DNA of 64,000 bases from Isurus oxyrinchus (Eukaryota): assembly GCA_026770705.1 (NCBI GenBank), contig JANJGN010000026.1, positions 32,240,001-32,304,000 on the forward strand, in the 5' to 3' direction. Within the stretch, counting starts at the first letter, position 1. Each line of letters starts with the position of its first letter. The notes beneath the pieces are model-generated. The model made no database searches, was not told where the DNA came from, and saw only the letters and a list, made by a program, of their open reading frames with translations. Shown in pieces: positions 6,605 through 41,055 of this stretch. A program made the position numbers and the translations under genes.

Positions 6605-7088
6605 CTCTGAGACATGTTCAGGCGCCTCTGATCAGGTTGTAAGAGGTTAAGCGTTTAATCACCGACAGTTCTTATTTCTAGGATGTGCAGTTTGAGCTGT
6701 CCTGGCTTAATATTCAGAACAGAAGCAAAGGTTTTATATCATTCAGCTACAGACTATAACAAGGAAGGTGAAAGGATTATGGATGAAAAATTGAGGCAGG
6801 CAACGAGACGGAATGAACAGGGAAAATATATCGAAAGGCAGGAAGTCAGTTAACCTTCCACAGGTGCATCTGTAAAGTTTATTTTCATTATAAATGTGAG
6901 CTGTTGATACAATTTTACAAGTGGACCTCACCTGTTCTTGTTGGGTGTTGTGTTTCAATGCAGTTTATATAAACCCTGTTAATCTTACGGTGACGGCTGA
7001 ATTATTGCTTCTGTTTTAATACTACCTCTAACTGGAACACTCGGCTTGAGTTTTTGTACAGTATCCGCTATATCACTGCAGCATTGTG

Positions 7089-7555
7089 GCTTCATGGTAC
7101 AGAAATACACGGCGGTGTCGGAGAACAGGGCTTTGATAATCATTAATTCAGTAATTTCGGCAGCTTTCCTAAACGTCGAAGAGAATCTCTCTGTAAAGTC
7201 TGGGTTCGCTTTGCTATCGCTCCATAGGGATAAAACACAAACTTTGGAGGCTGCCCGGGCTGCTGACCGTACCAGAAGAGATAAGGGCTGGGGCCGCTGG
7301 TTTTCAACGTGCACTTTATGGTGACATTTCCTTCCTGTTCAACCGTCATTTCAGGTACTGACTGCTCCACTGAATCTTTATGACTCCATTCTGACACAGA
7401 TGATGACAATATTTATCGTACATTATCATAACAAGCGCTTTGCTATTAACGATGTTTGAGATACGGCAGCCAGGGGCAGAATGGATTTTTACTGGGAAGC
7501 ATATACTTACTGAGAGGCGATATAATGAGTGGCGTGAGATAGTTCCACGAGATGT
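7089..7555 (-). pseudogene. TCR V pseudogene (V5)
   Basis: V exon 7089-7390: WSHKDSVEQ...IKCTLKTS...YLFWYGQQP, frameshift, then DFTERFSS...DTAVYFCTMK. Leader from 7511 lacks ATG. RSS CACAATG+24+ACAAAAACT (7049-7088). Confidence 0.9.
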
Positions 7556-10530: not shown

Positions 10531-10944
10531 TCTTCATTAGTGATGCAGACTGAAATCAGGACCGAATACATGAGCAACAGGATTTGGAGTGGTTCTGTAT
10601 GAACGTACCAGCTAGTAGGAAAAGCTTTAAGTTGACATTAAAGGCGAGAAAAAGGAAATGTGCACAATTTTCAGAAAGACTGAAGACACGAGGGATAAGG
10701 AATAACTGGGAAGGGAAACATGTCGAAAAGTAAAAAAGAAGAAATAAGGCATCACCAATCCATTTCTCAATCTCATATCTATTAAAAATACAAGGTGCAA
10801 TTACAAACCAATATGATTGTGCAAGTGGACCTCACTTGCTGCTGTTATTGAGTGCTGTGTTTTGGTGCAATTTTAAGAATCTCCCTGTCACTTTCACTGT
10901 GGAAACTGAATTACCGGTGAGCACAGGATGAAACTGCCAGTGAG

Positions 10945-10984
10945 GGTTTTTGTACGTGTTCCGCTGTAGGTCTGTAGCAGTGTG
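10945..10984 (-). other. RSS of V6 (24-nt spacer)
   Basis: CACACTG + 24 nt + ACAAAAACC. Confidence 0.88.
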
Positions 10985-11474
10985 GGCTGCATGGCACAGA
11001 AATACACGGCGCCGTCAGGGATCATTGTGTTATTGATCGTTAGTTCTGTAATCCTGTTATTTTTATTAAACATCGAAGAAAATCGATCCGTGAGGTCGGT
11101 GTTCCTGTGCACATTCTCTCCAATAAGATGAAACATGTACATTGGAGGTTTCCCGGGGCGCTGACTATACCAGTACACATAAGGGTTAGGATCGCTTGTT
11201 TTCAAGATGCAGGTTAGTGTGACATTTCTCTCCTCTTCAACAGTTATTTCAGCAACCAGCTGTTCCACTGTATCTTGGTGGCTCCATTCTAATATAAACA
11301 ATAGCAATAACAACAATCAGTATCAAATTAACTAACATAAACATCATCACTGTTATTTTACTAACAATAACATCTGGGTCACAGCAGTCAGGAGGAGAAT
11401 GGAATTTTACTGGAAAGGAAATACTTACTGAGAAGTGAGATAATGACGAGGAGCGGAGCGAGTCTGTTCCCCAT
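10985..11474 (-). CDS. TRAV/TRDV: Intact TCR alpha/delta V segment (V6)
   Basis: Leader 11429-11474 MGNRLAPLLVIISLL with GTAAGT donor. V exon 10985-11288 is open: WSHQDTVEQ...VTLTCILKTS...VYWYSQRP...DRFSS...DGAVYFCAMQP. RSS present. Confidence 0.93.
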
Positions 11475-21650: not shown

Positions 21651-22064
21651 AAAGACCTGAATTCACAAATAACTCACTAATCAGAAATTCGTTAATTCTG
21701 TCTCTATAAGAACTGCGTTACTTGCAATTTCATGCCAAATCTGAGACAAGCAGGCACGCAACAGGAATCAGGTAATTGTTGTTTGTCTCTATAGTTACCG
21801 ATAACTTCACGGTTGAAATCAGTTAAGGCAAGGGGCTGAATATGTCAGTGGGGAGCCAAACACATGGGCAACCCATCCAATGACCTGGAGCTGAACTGCT
21901 CATTAACACTGACCTAACCTGCTCAATTGTGGGTCTGTAAGCAACCGTCACATTGAAGAGCATAAATATGAGATCAAACACAATTTCTATGGAAGCAATA
22001 TAAATAAATTATCTGTCAGTGTTGGTTCTTGCAACGCAACAGACGGTGGGAATCCGCAGCCTGA

Positions 22065-22083
22065 TTTGCCACCTGGTGGTCGG
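22065..22083 (-). promoter_or_regulatory. CTCF motif ~40 bp downstream of the V12 RSS
   Basis: Minus strand GACCACCAGGTGGCAA. Confidence 0.68.
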
Positions 22084-31561: not shown

Positions 31562-31927
31562 ATGTTCTCGCGCTGCTTGTTACTAATAATGTTGGTATTA
31601 CTGACCGGTGAGTCAATGTCTAAATAGTTAGTGTCTGTCCATGGGTCATATTCATACCCAGACATTTGATACATACTGTACTCTGTTGCAGGAACCAATA
31701 GCAAAGGTGAAGTGTCCCAGAGTCCCTCTGATTAACGGTTCTGGAAGGGCAGGCCATAATACTGAACTGCAGTTACTCTGCAACTGCTGTTCGAACTCTG
31801 TTCTGGTACATCAGGATTTCCCAGACAGGTTTTCTGCTGTTTTGCACGAAGGAAACAAAACAGTTCCTTTAAATATCGCCGGGACTCTTCTCTCCAACAC
31901 CGTTGTCTATTTCTGTGCCATTGAGCC
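31562..31927 (+). pseudogene. TCR V pseudogene (V17)
   Basis: Leader 31562-31607 MFSRCLLLIMLVLLT. Exon from 31692 has a 1-nt frameshift and a ~70-nt FR2/CDR2 deletion; ends VVYFCAIEP. Heptamer destroyed. Confidence 0.9.
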
Positions 31928-31987
31928 AATAGCGGTGCAGAGAGAGCGCGGGTTCCGTACAAAAAACCTCAATGAGAGTTTGTTATT

Positions 31988-32006
31988 GTACAGCAGAGGG
32001 CGCACA
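31988..32006 (+). promoter_or_regulatory. CTCF motif ~23 bp after the V17 nonamer
   Basis: ACAGCAGAGGGCGC. Confidence 0.68.
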
Positions 32007-36073: not shown

Positions 36074-37311
36074 GTCTGAGTGAATCTCTCTCAGTGAATG
36101 GGAAGGGAATGAGCCAGATATTGAGGAGAGAGGGGACCCGGGCTCTGTTCAGCTCATTGTTCCACCCACACACTGCAGGGGGCCAGGCCCATTGTGGCCT
36201 CACTCAGGATACGATTCCGAATAGTGCGTCTCATGCAACTTTCTAAAGAATGTGCTTGGGCTTGGCGTCCCCTGCTGGTGGATTCTGTTCAATCCGGTTT
36301 AGAATGGGGTCATTAGGTAGACTTAATATAGTCACATATGTGAATAGACTAGTTAAACTGGGGTTGTTCTTATTATATCTTTCTATTGAATCCTCGACCT
36401 GGAGGCAGGTCCGATCCACTGCACCACCGTGGGTAGAACAAGGAGGTAGGCCCCAAATCCACCCCAGCTGGAACAGGAATTGAACACCGTCCTGGCCTTC
36501 AAACTTGCTGAGCCAACAGTCCGCCCTCCTTCCAAGGATTCAGAAGAGGGTAAGATACCCATTGGCCACAAGACCGCCTTAAATCAAAGGAGGTAAGAGA
36601 GAGACTGAACTGAGGTTTTCAGATTTATGTGGGTTTGTTAGTGTAGATCGTGCATAACTGTTTCCAATTGCGGAACATTGGATATCACAAGGGGCCCGAT
36701 TTAGAGGGAAAAGCAGCTAGGGAAAGATTCGATTAATTTATCATACTGCGATTTGTTAAACTCTGGAAGGCAGAGCCCAATAGTATGGTGGAAGAAGATT
36801 CAACACCATACTTAAGAAGGAAATTGTATATAACTAGAAAGGGAAAATGCCAGGCTCTGTAGAAAATGTGGGCATTGAAAGCCGAACCGAAAAATCATTT
36901 GAAAGTGTCTCAGACATCACAGGCCGAGTGGCCTCATTCGGTGCTCTAAGATTCCATGTTTCTAGTGCCTCCCTGTCCCTCCCACTCTTCTTGTTCTCAA
37001 TCATTTGAACAGTAAACAGGTGCAGGATGGTCAGAGAGTTCTGAAGCTTCGACCGTTGCTATTTCCACTCCATCAGTTCCCAGTGCGGCTGAGAGTAACT
37101 GCACACTTCACTCAATATTCAGTCTGCGGTAACCCCTCCCACAGCTTCCGTTTGCTGCTCTCGCTCTTAACCGATTGTGTTATTGGAGAGATTGCTGCAG
37201 CTGGTCCAATCCTGTCATTGGCTGGATCAGCAGTGCAGTGGGATGGGTACATGTATTTCTGCTCCGACAGAGGATTTCTCGCACTGCAGAGTTACAGACC
37301 GAGGAAATGCC

Positions 37312-37814
37312 ATGGGAAACCATCTCACTCCACTCCTCATCATTATCTCACTTCTCAGTAAGTATTTCCATCCCAGTAAAACTCCGTTCTCCTTCTGACC
37401 TCTGCAATCCAGATGCTATTGTTGGTAAAATAATAGTGATGGCGGCGATGATGATTATGTTTATCAATAGGAAGCTGATTCTGATTGTCATCATTATTAT
37501 TTGTGTTAGAATGGGGTCACCAAGATACAGTGGAACAGCCGATTCCTGGAATAACGTTTGAAGAGGAAAGCAATGTCACATTAACCTACTCCTTGAAAAC
37601 AAGTGATTCTAACCTCTGTGTAAACTGGTACAGCCAGCGCACCGAGAAACCTCCAATGTACCTGTTTCGTCTTATTGTCGAGAATGTGCACAGGAATAAC
37701 GGCATCAATGATCGATTTTATTCTATGTCTAAAAAAAAAAATCAAGATTACCAAGCTAACGATCAATAACACACTGATCCCCGACAGCGCCGTGTATTCC
37801 TGTGCCAGGGACTC
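37312..37814 (+). pseudogene. TCR V pseudogene (V21; V6 family)
   Basis: Leader 37312-37357. Exon from 37510 has Cys23->Tyr and a frameshift in an A-run at ~37731. Heptamer TACACTG+24+ATTAAAACC. Confidence 0.9.
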
Positions 37815-37875
37815 TACACTGTCGCAAAGATATAGGGAATTTCACATTAAAACCATTATTGGCAGTTCCAACCAG

Positions 37876-37894
37876 TGCTCACCAGGGGGCGCGC
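37876..37894 (+). promoter_or_regulatory. CTCF motif ~24 bp after the V21 nonamer
   Basis: CTCACCAGGGGGCGC. Confidence 0.75.
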
Positions 37895-38439
37895 ACGCAC
37901 CGGTAATTCAGTTTTCACGGTGAGGGCGACAGGGAGACTCTTAAAATTACAACAAAACACAACACTCAATAACAGGAACGGGCCAGGCCACTTTCACAGT
38001 CATCTTAGTTTGTGATTGCACATGTCATTTATAATAGATTCACCAATTGTTCTGTGATGTCTTAACTCCTCTTCGCTTTCAACGCCTTTCCCTACCTATG
38101 TATTCATGACCACCCTTCTTTTTACTCATTTCTGAAAACTGTGCACATTTCCTTTTCCAGTCTTTAATTTAAACGTTTGCAGCTTTTTCTGCTCCCTTGT
38201 GCATTAATTCAGAAGAACTCCAACCCGGATGCTCATGTACTCAGGTTTGCATTCAATCCACATCACACTATTGGAAAATTTACTAATTCTGACACTCCTG
38301 TTGTGAGCCTGCTGGCCTGCAATATTGGACGAAGGTTAAACTACCGCAGTTGTTACAGAGAGGCAAAGGTATACAATTTTCAATTTGTGATGATTATAAA
38401 GTTCAGTTTCTTGTAGATAAATCCTACGTCTGACAATAC

Positions 38440-38787
38440 TGCCATTGGTCGCCCCGCCAACAGCTTCCTTTTGCTGTTTTCGTTCTGACCCACCTTGTCT
38501 GCCTTGTTTTGCTGAAGAGTTGTTGCTGCTTCTCCCTATTTGGCATTAGTTAGATCAGATGTCCAGTGGGGAGGCGATTTCCATTTCTACCCTGACAGAG
38601 CATTGCCACGGACAAGCACGGTTACAGACTCAGGGAACTTCATGTTGAATGTATCTAAGATCACTCCTCGTTATTATATCACTTCCCAATACGTATATGT
38701 TTCCCAGTAAAAATTCATTCGCCGCCTCGCTGCCGTATCCCAAACATTACTAATAACAAAATGCAAGTAATGATGATATGACGATAA
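38440..38787 (+). pseudogene. Orphan promoter + leader + intron of the V5/V23 family, V exon missing
   Basis: Aligns with ~40340-40690. Breaks off just before the V acceptor, at the tandem-duplication junction. Confidence 0.7.
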
Positions 38788-39200
38788 CTCCTTCAAAAAG
38801 TTTCGGGCACCATAGGCCGAGTGGCCTCTTTCGGTGCTCTAAGATTCTGTGGTTCTCGTCTCTTCATGCCACGCCCACTCTACTTGTTCTCAGTCACTTG
38901 AACAGTGAGCAGGTGCAGGGTGCTCACAGACTTCCGGAGATTCAACCGTCGCTATTTCCGCTCCACCAGTTCCAGGTGCAGCTGACAGTCACCGCACCCT
39001 TCAGTCAGTATTGAGTCTGCGGTATCCCCGCTCACAGCTTCCTTTGCTGCTCTCGCTCTGACCCGATTGGGTTATTGGAGAGGATGCTGCCGCTGGCCCA
39101 TTCCTGTCACTGGCTGGATCGGCAATGCAGTGGGACGGGGATCTGTATTTCTGCTCCGACAGAGGATTTCTCGCACTGCGGAGTTACAGGCTCAGGAAGT

Positions 39201-39696
39201 ATGATGGGGAACCGTCTCGCTCCGCTCCTCATCATTATCTCACTTCTCAGTAAGTACTTCCTTCCCAGTAAAACTCCATTCTCCTCCTGACTGCTGTAAC
39301 CGAGGTGTTTCTGTTGGTGGTGATGGTGATGGTGATGGTGGTGATGATCAATACGAGGCTGATGCTGATTGCCGTTGTTATTATTTCTATTAGAATGGAG
39401 TCGCCAAGACGCAGTGGAACAACCGGTTGCTGAAGTAAAGGTTGAAGAAGAAAGGAATGTCACATTTACCTGCACCTTGAAAACAAGCTCTTCAACCCTT
39501 ATGTGCACTGGTACAGTCATCACCGCGGGAAACCTCCAATGTACATGTTTCGTCTTGTTAGAGATTATGTGCAAAGGAACGCCGACCTCAATGAGAGGTT
39601 TTCTTCTATGTTTGATAAAAGTAACAAGATTACCGAGCTAACGATCAACAACACACTGATCCCCGATAGCGCCGTGTATTTCTGTGCCATGGAGCC
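39201..39696 (+). pseudogene. TCR V segment (V22; V6 family) with a single 1-nt frameshift in CDR1
   Basis: Leader 39201-39249 intact. Exon from 39394 shifts frame at ~39490; the rest is open to DSAVYFCAMEP. RSS CACACTG+24+ACAAAACAC (39697-39736). Confidence 0.88.
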
Positions 39697-39758
39697 CACA
39701 CTGCTGCAGAGATATAGGGGATTCCGTACAAAACACCCTCATTGGCAGTTCCAGTCAG

Positions 39759-39777
39759 TGCTCACCAGGGGGCGCAC
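39759..39777 (+). promoter_or_regulatory. CTCF motif ~24 bp after the V22 nonamer
   Basis: CTCACCAGGGGGCGC. Confidence 0.75.
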
Positions 39778-40538
39778 ACACCGGTAATTCAATTTCCACA
39801 TTGAGAGCGACAGAGATTCTGAAAATTGCAACAGAACGCAACACTCAAAAACAGCAACAGCTGAGGGTCCACTTGTAAAATTATATTAGTTTTTGGTTGC
39901 ACATTACATTTATAATAGATATGAAACTGACAAATCGACCCATGATGTCTTTCGCTCCGGTTTTTTTTTGTTTCCGACACCTTTCCCTTCCTAGTTGTTC
40001 CTTACCACTCTTGTTTTCAGAATTTTCTGAAAACTGTGCACATTTATTTTTTCCCGTCTTTAATATAAACACTTAAAACTTTTTCTACTGTCTTGCACAT
40101 TGATTCTGAACCACTCCAACCCGGCTGTTCATGTATTCAGGCTTGAGTTCAACCCATATCACTGATGAAGATTTCGCTTACGAGTGAATAATTTCCTAAC
40201 CCAGGCACTGGTGGTGCTGGCCCGCAATATGGAATGAGGATTAAACGACCGTTCTTGCAGAGAGACAAGGTTAGATATTTTTCAAAGGTGTGATTATTAT
40301 TGAGTTCGGTTCCTTTATAGATAAATGCCGCGTGAGGAAACACTGCCTGCGGCAGCCAAACCCACTGCTTCCTTTCCCGCTCTGACCCGCCTTATCTGCT
40401 CTGCTTTATTGGAAAGGTTGTTGCCGCTTTTCCCTGTTTGACATTGGTTGGATCAGCAGTCCAGTGGGGAACCGACTCCGATTTCTACCCTGACAGAACA
40501 TTTCCCTGGACTGAAGAGTTACAAACTCAGGGAACATC

Positions 40539-40976
40539 ATGTGAAACTATCTCAGACGACTCATTATTATAACACACTCAGTAAGTAAATGCTTCCCAGT
40601 AAAAGGAAAACATTCTCACTCAGGCTGCCCTAATCCAAACATTATTGAAGCAAAAATGTTTGTTATGTTGATGTAATGATAAATATTGTCATTGTCCATG
40701 TCAGAATGGAGCCATCAAGACTCATCGGAGCAGTCGGTACCTGAAATGATGGTTGAAGAGGAAAGGAATAAACTGCACCCTGGAAACAAGCGAACCCAGC
40801 CCTTACATGTCACGGTGCAGTCAGCAGCCCGGGCAGCCTCTACAGTGTGTGTTTTATACTTCCGAAGGATAGGAAAACGGAACACCGATTTTAGAGAGCG
40901 ATTCTCTTTCACGTATGTTAACGATTAGGAACGTCCTGATATTCAACACTGCCGTGTATTTCTGTGCCACGAAGAC
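40539..40976 (+). pseudogene. TCR V pseudogene (V23), inverted paralog of V5
   Basis: Leader ATG is followed by TGA. Exon from 40705 has internal deletions; ends TAVYFCATK. Heptamer destroyed, 24-nt spacer, GCAAAACCC. Confidence 0.87.
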
Positions 40977-41036
40977 CAAGCCTCTGCAGAGATATAGCGG
41001 AACCCGCGCAAAACCCGACACTGGGAGCGGCAGTGA

Positions 41037-41055
41037 GTGTCACTAGAGGGCGCTC
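41037..41055 (+). promoter_or_regulatory. CTCF motif ~23 bp after the V23 nonamer
   Basis: GTCACTAGAGGGCGC. Confidence 0.72.

Follow-up and report, generated by a model that had tools for sequence, protein, structure and literature searches.

A CTCF-type motif stands just behind the RSS of many V segments in a TCR alpha/delta array of this shark, on the strand of its V, and it has diverged less than its flanks. The first-pass annotation had proposed a selected motif of this kind, and in this respect it was right. As judged from sequence comparisons, the constraint on the motif follows the CTCF matrix and outlasts the death of both the V gene and its RSS. The window is a stretch of 64,000 nt (C26:32240001-32304000) out of a 5-Gb genome, and carries V segments or V fragments, about 24 in all, on the two strands. 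Motifs were scored with a 19-column, JASPAR-type CTCF count matrix, which is human-derived. The family labels (F0-F17) are our own.

Five motifs in the window scored 16.6-17.4 bits, which with this matrix corresponds to a P of about 1e-6 per position; all five are at the positions first annotated and on the strand of their V. Three of them follow pseudogenes of family F5 on the plus strand. V21 (37503..37814, +), a TCR alpha/delta-type V exon with a frameshift, is followed by an RSS in the 24-bp spacer register with damaged heptamer and nonamer (37815..37854, +) and, 21 bp past the nonamer, by a motif of 17.0 bits (37876..37894, +). V22 (39393..39696, +) has stops in the frame of its final Cys; its RSS (39697..39736, +) consists of the heptamer CACACTG, a 24-bp spacer and a nonamer with two mismatches, and the motif (39759..39777, +; 17.3 bits) starts 22 bp further on. 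V23 (40703..41016, +) has suffered deletions and its heptamer is destroyed, while its nonamer (41008-41016) is followed after 20 bp by a motif of 16.6 bits (41037..41055, +). The fourth plus-strand case is V17 (31632..31967, +), a pseudogene of sub-family F2b, in which F2-type coding sequence is joined to an F5-type 3' cassette; its heptamer is destroyed as well, and the motif (31987..32005, +; 17.3 bits) lies 19 bp past the nonamer. Counted to matrix position 4 instead, these four gaps amount to 22-25 bp, in agreement with the ~23-25 bp reported initially. No other plus-strand matches of 15 bits or more were found in the window, and chance, at the rate of matches in the window, would have given 0.0125 behind V segments (8 offsets for each of 25 V). 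The V exons of all four are broken. The observation that the motif persists where the heptamer is lost applied to V17, V21 and V23, whose heptamers are damaged, and not to V22, whose heptamer is undamaged.

Upstream of the V21 motif, a segment that precedes core position 4 by 9 bp (37860..37869, +) is suggestive of the upstream CTCF motif (ZF9-11), as this is described in an excerpt of PMC12885311. Across the cassettes this upstream motif was closely matched in 4/46 lineages and only loosely in most copies, with three conserved linker columns.

The fifth motif (22064..22082, -; 17.4 bits) is found, as annotated, some 40 bp past the decayed nonamer of V12, which belongs to a separate family. 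The motif was present in all four copies of this family found by coding sequence, 77-79 bp from the coding end, and the RSS is ruined in all of them. V12 is a second, unrelated case of a V-side motif. The idea of a fixed module is limited by two F5 members of the window that have no motif: a V with an open frame and a near-consensus RSS from which the motif has been deleted (10897..11316, -; Cys at 10998), and a pseudogene that has lost it (6988..7412, -; Cys at 7101). A motif of another class (36263..36281, -; 20.3 bits) is found on the promoter side of a V of family F1, some 190 bp ahead of its leader ATG, and recurs in about 20/29 F1 copies at -670 to -770. Other motifs at fixed offsets were seen in F10 (about -1120) and, on the opposite strand, in F9 and F5 (about -1500). 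Further strong CTCF motifs of the window, at 2498, 18017 and 18822 (14.3-22.9 bits), were assigned to neither the RSS nor the promoter class.

Selection on the motif was assessed in 62 lineages that were less than 95% alike. By parsimony counts, which hinge on the alignment used and a single tree, the motif core required 4.3 steps per column, the heptamer 5.6, the nonamer 5.1, and the spacer, linker and downstream flank 6.6-8.4. The core is the 13-bp non-coding window with the fewest changes, its total of 56 steps comparing with 100.7 +/- 10.5 predicted by base- and CpG-matched flank columns. The number of steps per column fell with the information content of the matrix (Spearman rho -0.83), and the CpG of the motif underwent 4+5 steps, compared with 13-26 for nine other CpGs. 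Position 4 is a T in most copies, a base that is disfavoured there. A score of 10 bits or more was kept in 46 of the 58 undeleted copies, when neutral simulation gave 11.6-12.0 copies with a maximum of 30 (3 x 150 runs). Removal of 14 copies that might have been chosen for their motif left 45 steps versus 77.5 expected (P=5e-5). Neutral paralogy does not explain the motif.

The comparison of intact and broken genes confirmed that pseudogenes hold on to the motif. On the terminal branches leading to 41 ORF-broken copies, heptamer and nonamer changed at the rate of the flank (56/628, or 0.089, versus 0.100; P=0.22), whereas the core changed at about half that rate (22/489, or 0.045, versus 553/5549 for the flank; P=1.3e-5). 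On the branches to 21 open-frame copies the RSS was conserved (0.034) and the core did no better than the flank (14/261, or 0.054, versus 0.053-0.073), these being small numbers. The motif was retained in 14/17 intact and 32/45 broken copies (P=0.52), 'intact' meaning an open V exon frame with a good RSS, leaders not entering into the definition. The upkeep of the motif is uncoupled from its gene.

To describe the distribution of the motif, 285 distinct V ends were annotated in ~1.4 Mb of DNA, of which 15 short or misassigned rows were dropped, and the cut-off for presence was set at 10 bits or more. The motif was found in 44/70 V ends of F5, in 35/39 of F2b, in 0/11 of its sister F2a and in 1/150 of the other families, that is in 1/161 V ends outside F5 and F2b, IgH V included; these family counts contain near-identical duplicates, and some of the stretches were chosen with knowledge of the motif. 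F2b clusters with F2a by coding sequence and with F5 by its 3' flank. Informative sites favoured F2a by 36:4 before a switch point some 30 nt upstream of the last base of the Cys codon, and F5 by 29:4 after it (P=1e-11). The pattern of these sites, together with the two trees, identifies F2b as a chimera, although an AU test for F2a and F2b as one clade on the tree of the 3' flank did not reject that grouping (p=0.289). These data show that a cassette comprising the end of FR3, an RSS with a 24-bp spacer, a linker of ~21 bp, the motif and the downstream flank arose in F5, was joined to F2-type coding sequence to give F2b, and then spread by duplication. The sites behind V17, V21, V22 and V23 descend from this one cassette and are not independent events.

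The gap was 19-22 bp in 39/46 motif-bearing lineages and the orientation was always that of the V. The predicted peak of distances over the V flanks was thus found, but it reflects one inherited cassette and not repeated siting: since the linker still aligns, the fixed gap follows from common descent. The 24-bp spacer was similarly restricted, occurring in 51/57 good RSSs of F5 and F2b and in 1/78 elsewhere. It appears as a family trait of these two groups, and a read-through peptide of the horn shark implies the same. This spacer could also be read in a 22-bp register, at the price of a poorer heptamer. Spacers of 22 or 24 bp are in use at some human loci, according to an excerpt of PMC2212390.

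A genome-wide search for a nonamer followed by the motif yielded 95 matches, versus 3 for a reversed control, and 66 of the 95 lay in this V array. None of the 22 off-locus matches that were inspected proved to be a V gene, and 10 of them belonged to one dispersed repeat that has no similarity to V. This repeat family, present on several chromosomes, carries a CTCF motif preceded, at a distance of about 20 bp, by a nonamer-like word, and may be spreading CTCF sites. Two more matches, at C88:422992 and 1385023, have a shorter gap, and their contig also contains Ig constant exons. Nowhere in this genome did an intact RSS have a strict match to the motif at a distance of 28-58 bp.

The V22 cassette was recovered in SRA contigs of two close relatives, organisms B and C, at ~96% identity; its motif is intact in organism B and damaged by one change in organism C. 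The median divergence of the flank among cassettes (0.36) indicates that the cassette is far older than the split between this shark and organism B. A protein record of the horn shark continues past the RSS, and the peptide encoded there is compatible with the motif at a gap of 21 bp, as in this shark; one F2b-type protein record is likewise compatible, and a bamboo-shark record weakly so. With best-case back-translation, 18 bits was reached in 11/49 read-through tails, compared with 0.79 in shuffles, the tails concerned being mostly from teleosts and several of them paralogues. A metagenome scan for an RSS plus the motif returned seven loci, a number from which no frequency can be derived because the search pattern contained the motif itself. 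Six of them were fish-type TCR V of two unrelated families with one RSS and 3' flank in common and a motif of 12.8-14.9 bits at 31 bp. This common flank resembles the capture seen in F5 and F2b. Beyond the motif, shark and teleost flanks could not be aligned (score 15, versus a mean of 14.1 for shuffles), and as far as sequence can tell the teleost motif at 31 bp is not homologous to that of the shark. The first-pass annotation had dated the arrangement to early jawed vertebrates; this dating is not supported, as the teleost and mammalian sites on which it relies are not homologous. A helical phasing across taxa (16-18, 21, 31, 40 and 46 bp) was considered and dropped. We found no published description of an RSS-side CTCF motif in sharks or teleosts, in a search that covered the subscription literature thinly.

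Matches to the V set span 23.1 to 40.3 Mb of C26, a contig of 40.33 Mb, and continue onto scaffolds C140, C151, C152, C210 and C301. The array measures about 17 Mb, with a mixture of TCR V and Ig constant sequences and large segmental duplications on both strands. At least 29 C1-set exons lie between 24 and 40 Mb of C26, among 150 scored out of 973 candidates. The one exon from C26 that was tested resembles IgH constant mu/alpha, which suggests that IgH clusters are interleaved with the TCR V blocks. A separate contig, C242, carries the same V families as C26 in its left part, J-alpha-like segments at 668-743 kb and a C-alpha-like exon at 749.5 kb; the latter was recovered by a pattern scan, the PF09291 profile having found no C-alpha. 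C-delta was not located. The TCR alpha/delta label relies on a catshark record in which a relative of F5 is annotated as TCR alpha chain-like, and on V families in common with C242; a PDB search with an F5 V gave a mixture of Ig and TCR matches and left F5 unclassified.

The motif-bearing V of C26 face both ways in equal numbers (31:31, by contig strand, J-alpha and C-alpha being on the separate C242), and the pattern matches are divided 24:14. On C242, one motif-bearing V is forward and two are reverse, and 800 kb of this contig hold three or four motif-bearing cassettes, all of them flanking broken genes. RSS-type sites are the minority: of the 23 motifs found over an unbroken 200 kb, 4 are of this type, shuffles giving 3.3. 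Six reverse CTCF motifs (13.8-24.2 bits) lie between J-delta-like and J-alpha segments (C242:636990-659305). A 43-bp repeat of 289 copies (C242:764112-776676), 14.5 kb behind C-alpha, contributes 277 reverse matches of 14 bits or more. In most units the CTCF-like motif points back at V/J and has a perfect RSS heptamer immediately before it, and the strongest variant of this motif is confined to C242 behind C-alpha. By its sequence, the repeat is a candidate 3' super-anchor, or else a chance minisatellite.

The shark element had been likened to the RSS-associated CTCF sites of mouse Igh. In excerpts of the literature, these are described as lying 17-19 bp from the nonamer, as sharing one orientation in more than 98% of cases and as occurring for the most part at functional genes (PMC6746451), as restricted to VH clans 2/3, with an 'A state' (PMC4914699), and as raising the use of the adjacent VH, as with the VH81X CBE (review PMC7930373); mouse proximal pseudogenes are without the site (PMC7930373; PMC6746451). 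Like these sites in VH clans 2/3 of the mouse and human IGH loci, the shark motif is just 3' of the nonamer of a 23-type RSS, is co-oriented with its V, is confined to V clades and is better conserved than the linker. Unlike them, it accompanies TCR alpha/delta V with a 24-bp spacer, lies at a gap of 21-22 bp instead of 17-19 bp (on the scale used in the excerpt of PMC6746451), occurs in both chromosomal orientations and is kept by pseudogenes. The element looks Igh-like locally, but it lacks two defining features of the Igh element; the analogy survives for the RSS-side position, the co-orientation and the restriction to clades, and fails for the mixed orientation and the retention in pseudogenes. 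It is further weakened by this shark's own IgH-type V, in which the motif was found in 0/9; this argues against orthology with the mammalian VH element.

A contrast had also been drawn with mouse Tcra/d, whose sites are mostly promoter-side and are listed as upstream or intergenic in the excerpt of PMC5859386. This contrast is not supported in the form proposed, as the same shark array also has promoter-side motifs (F1). The shark array shares with mouse Tcra/d and Tcrb many family-linked sites and the reverse sites near D/J, and with Tcra/d the promoter-side class and the occurrence of both orientations, as given in the excerpt of PMC5859386; the excerpt of PMC10121685 conflicts with the latter in describing Tcra/d V and CBEs as one-directional. 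It differs from both mouse loci in having a whole V clade with RSS-side sites, only two mouse Tcrb sites being near an RSS in the excerpts of PMC5859386 and PMC10772921. At Tcrb one site is described as a loop anchor and joining as orientation-free (excerpt of PMC10772921). Igh scanning requires a uniform orientation and Igk folds via many loops (excerpt of PMC10121685); as at Igk, shark V and motifs are in both orientations, and one long scan is ruled out for the inverted genes. The orientation of Igk CBEs is uncorrelated with that of the V (excerpt of PMC5859386), whereas the shark motif is locked to its V.

We favour the view that the motif may act as a loop anchor that helps to fold the 17-Mb V array as a whole, its role not being confined to assisting the adjacent RSS; on sequence evidence we consider the chances of this to be evenly balanced. 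CTCF would be bound at the cassette motif in thymocytes and would stall cohesin. Cassette, promoter-side and other motifs in both orientations would then produce nested loops across the array, and these would bring V, whichever way they face, close to the D/J centre for a diffusion-type synapsis, as at Igk or Tcrb. The partner anchors could be the reverse motifs that precede J-alpha and those that follow C-alpha. Several observations weigh against this view: the T at position 4, the open-frame branches on which the core fares no better than the flank, the hold that alignment and tree have over the parsimony counts, the human origin of the matrix, the placement of J-alpha and C-alpha on a contig other than that of the window, and the small number of motif-bearing cassettes on C242, which flank broken genes. 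The original use of the motif may have been a local boost to the adjoining RSS, which may persist in intact members.

It is somewhat unlikely that the motif works as an Igh-like local module, which would stall extrusion-driven RAG scanning at its own RSS, raise the use of that V and perhaps offset the 24-bp spacer, the copies in pseudogenes being kept by inertia or as decoys. Such a module would fit with the co-orientation and the narrow range of gaps, with a clade restriction that resembles that of VH clans 2/3 (excerpt of PMC4914699), with the near-exclusive 24-bp spacer of the carrier groups and with the presence of the motif in most copies that have an open frame and a good RSS. However, the gap is accounted for by descent, retention is the same in intact and broken genes (mouse proximal pseudogenes being without the site in the excerpts of PMC7930373 and PMC6746451), the intact V of the window with Cys at 10998 has lost the motif, and V and motifs facing both ways do not suit a scanning process that needs one orientation (excerpt of PMC10121685).

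A role of the sites as insulators between TCR V blocks and interleaved IgH clusters, limiting cross-cluster joining or the spread of chromatin states and taking no part in V choice, appears quite unlikely. The C1-set exons scattered over C26, the tested one being IgH mu/alpha-like, and a constraint independent of V function would agree with it, as would the partial upstream motif, since such a motif is linked to insulation in the excerpt of PMC12885311. However, most copies fit that upstream motif only loosely, the sites track V families and not cluster borders, and teleost TCR V also have RSS-side motifs. An unselected passenger, i.e. a chance motif copied with the V and slowed in its decay by methylation protection or gene conversion, is highly improbable: four of the five window sites do share one origin, and the motif is lost or weakened in 16/62 lineages and damaged in the orthologue of V22 in organism C, but the conserved positions are the non-CpG informative ones, matched-column and simulation tests reject flank-like evolution, and gene conversion would have homogenised the linker too.

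A broader proposal, to which we give a low probability, is that the RSS-plus-CTCF cassette is a portable module captured at the FR3 end by TCR alpha/delta V families, that dead V are kept as anchors by selection and pair with the 289-copy repeat as a super-anchor, and that RSS-side CTCF control is an old design of fish TCR loci, reached separately by mammalian IgH. Capture at the FR3 end is seen in this shark (F5 to F2b) and hinted at in teleosts by the flank that two V families share. For the folding of multi-megabase, two-way V arrays for recombination outside the mouse, sequence yields here, in a cartilaginous fish, selected CTCF-type sites of several classes, a natural contrast in which both intact and dead genes either have or lack the site, and a candidate 3' anchor. 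These make it testable whether an RSS-side CTCF site serves the gene or the locus, and offer a concrete explanation for a possible retention of V pseudogenes.

A few other features of the two contigs were observed. C242 contains, at 370-550 kb, inverted V pairs arranged in tandem, which resemble NAR-TCR V with their supporting V-delta, and an IgH-like V at 584.7 kb, immediately before the D/J region. At 27.178 and 24.433 Mb of C26, an IgH V runs straight into a WGQG J-like sequence with no RSS between them; these two are likely germline-joined VDJ.
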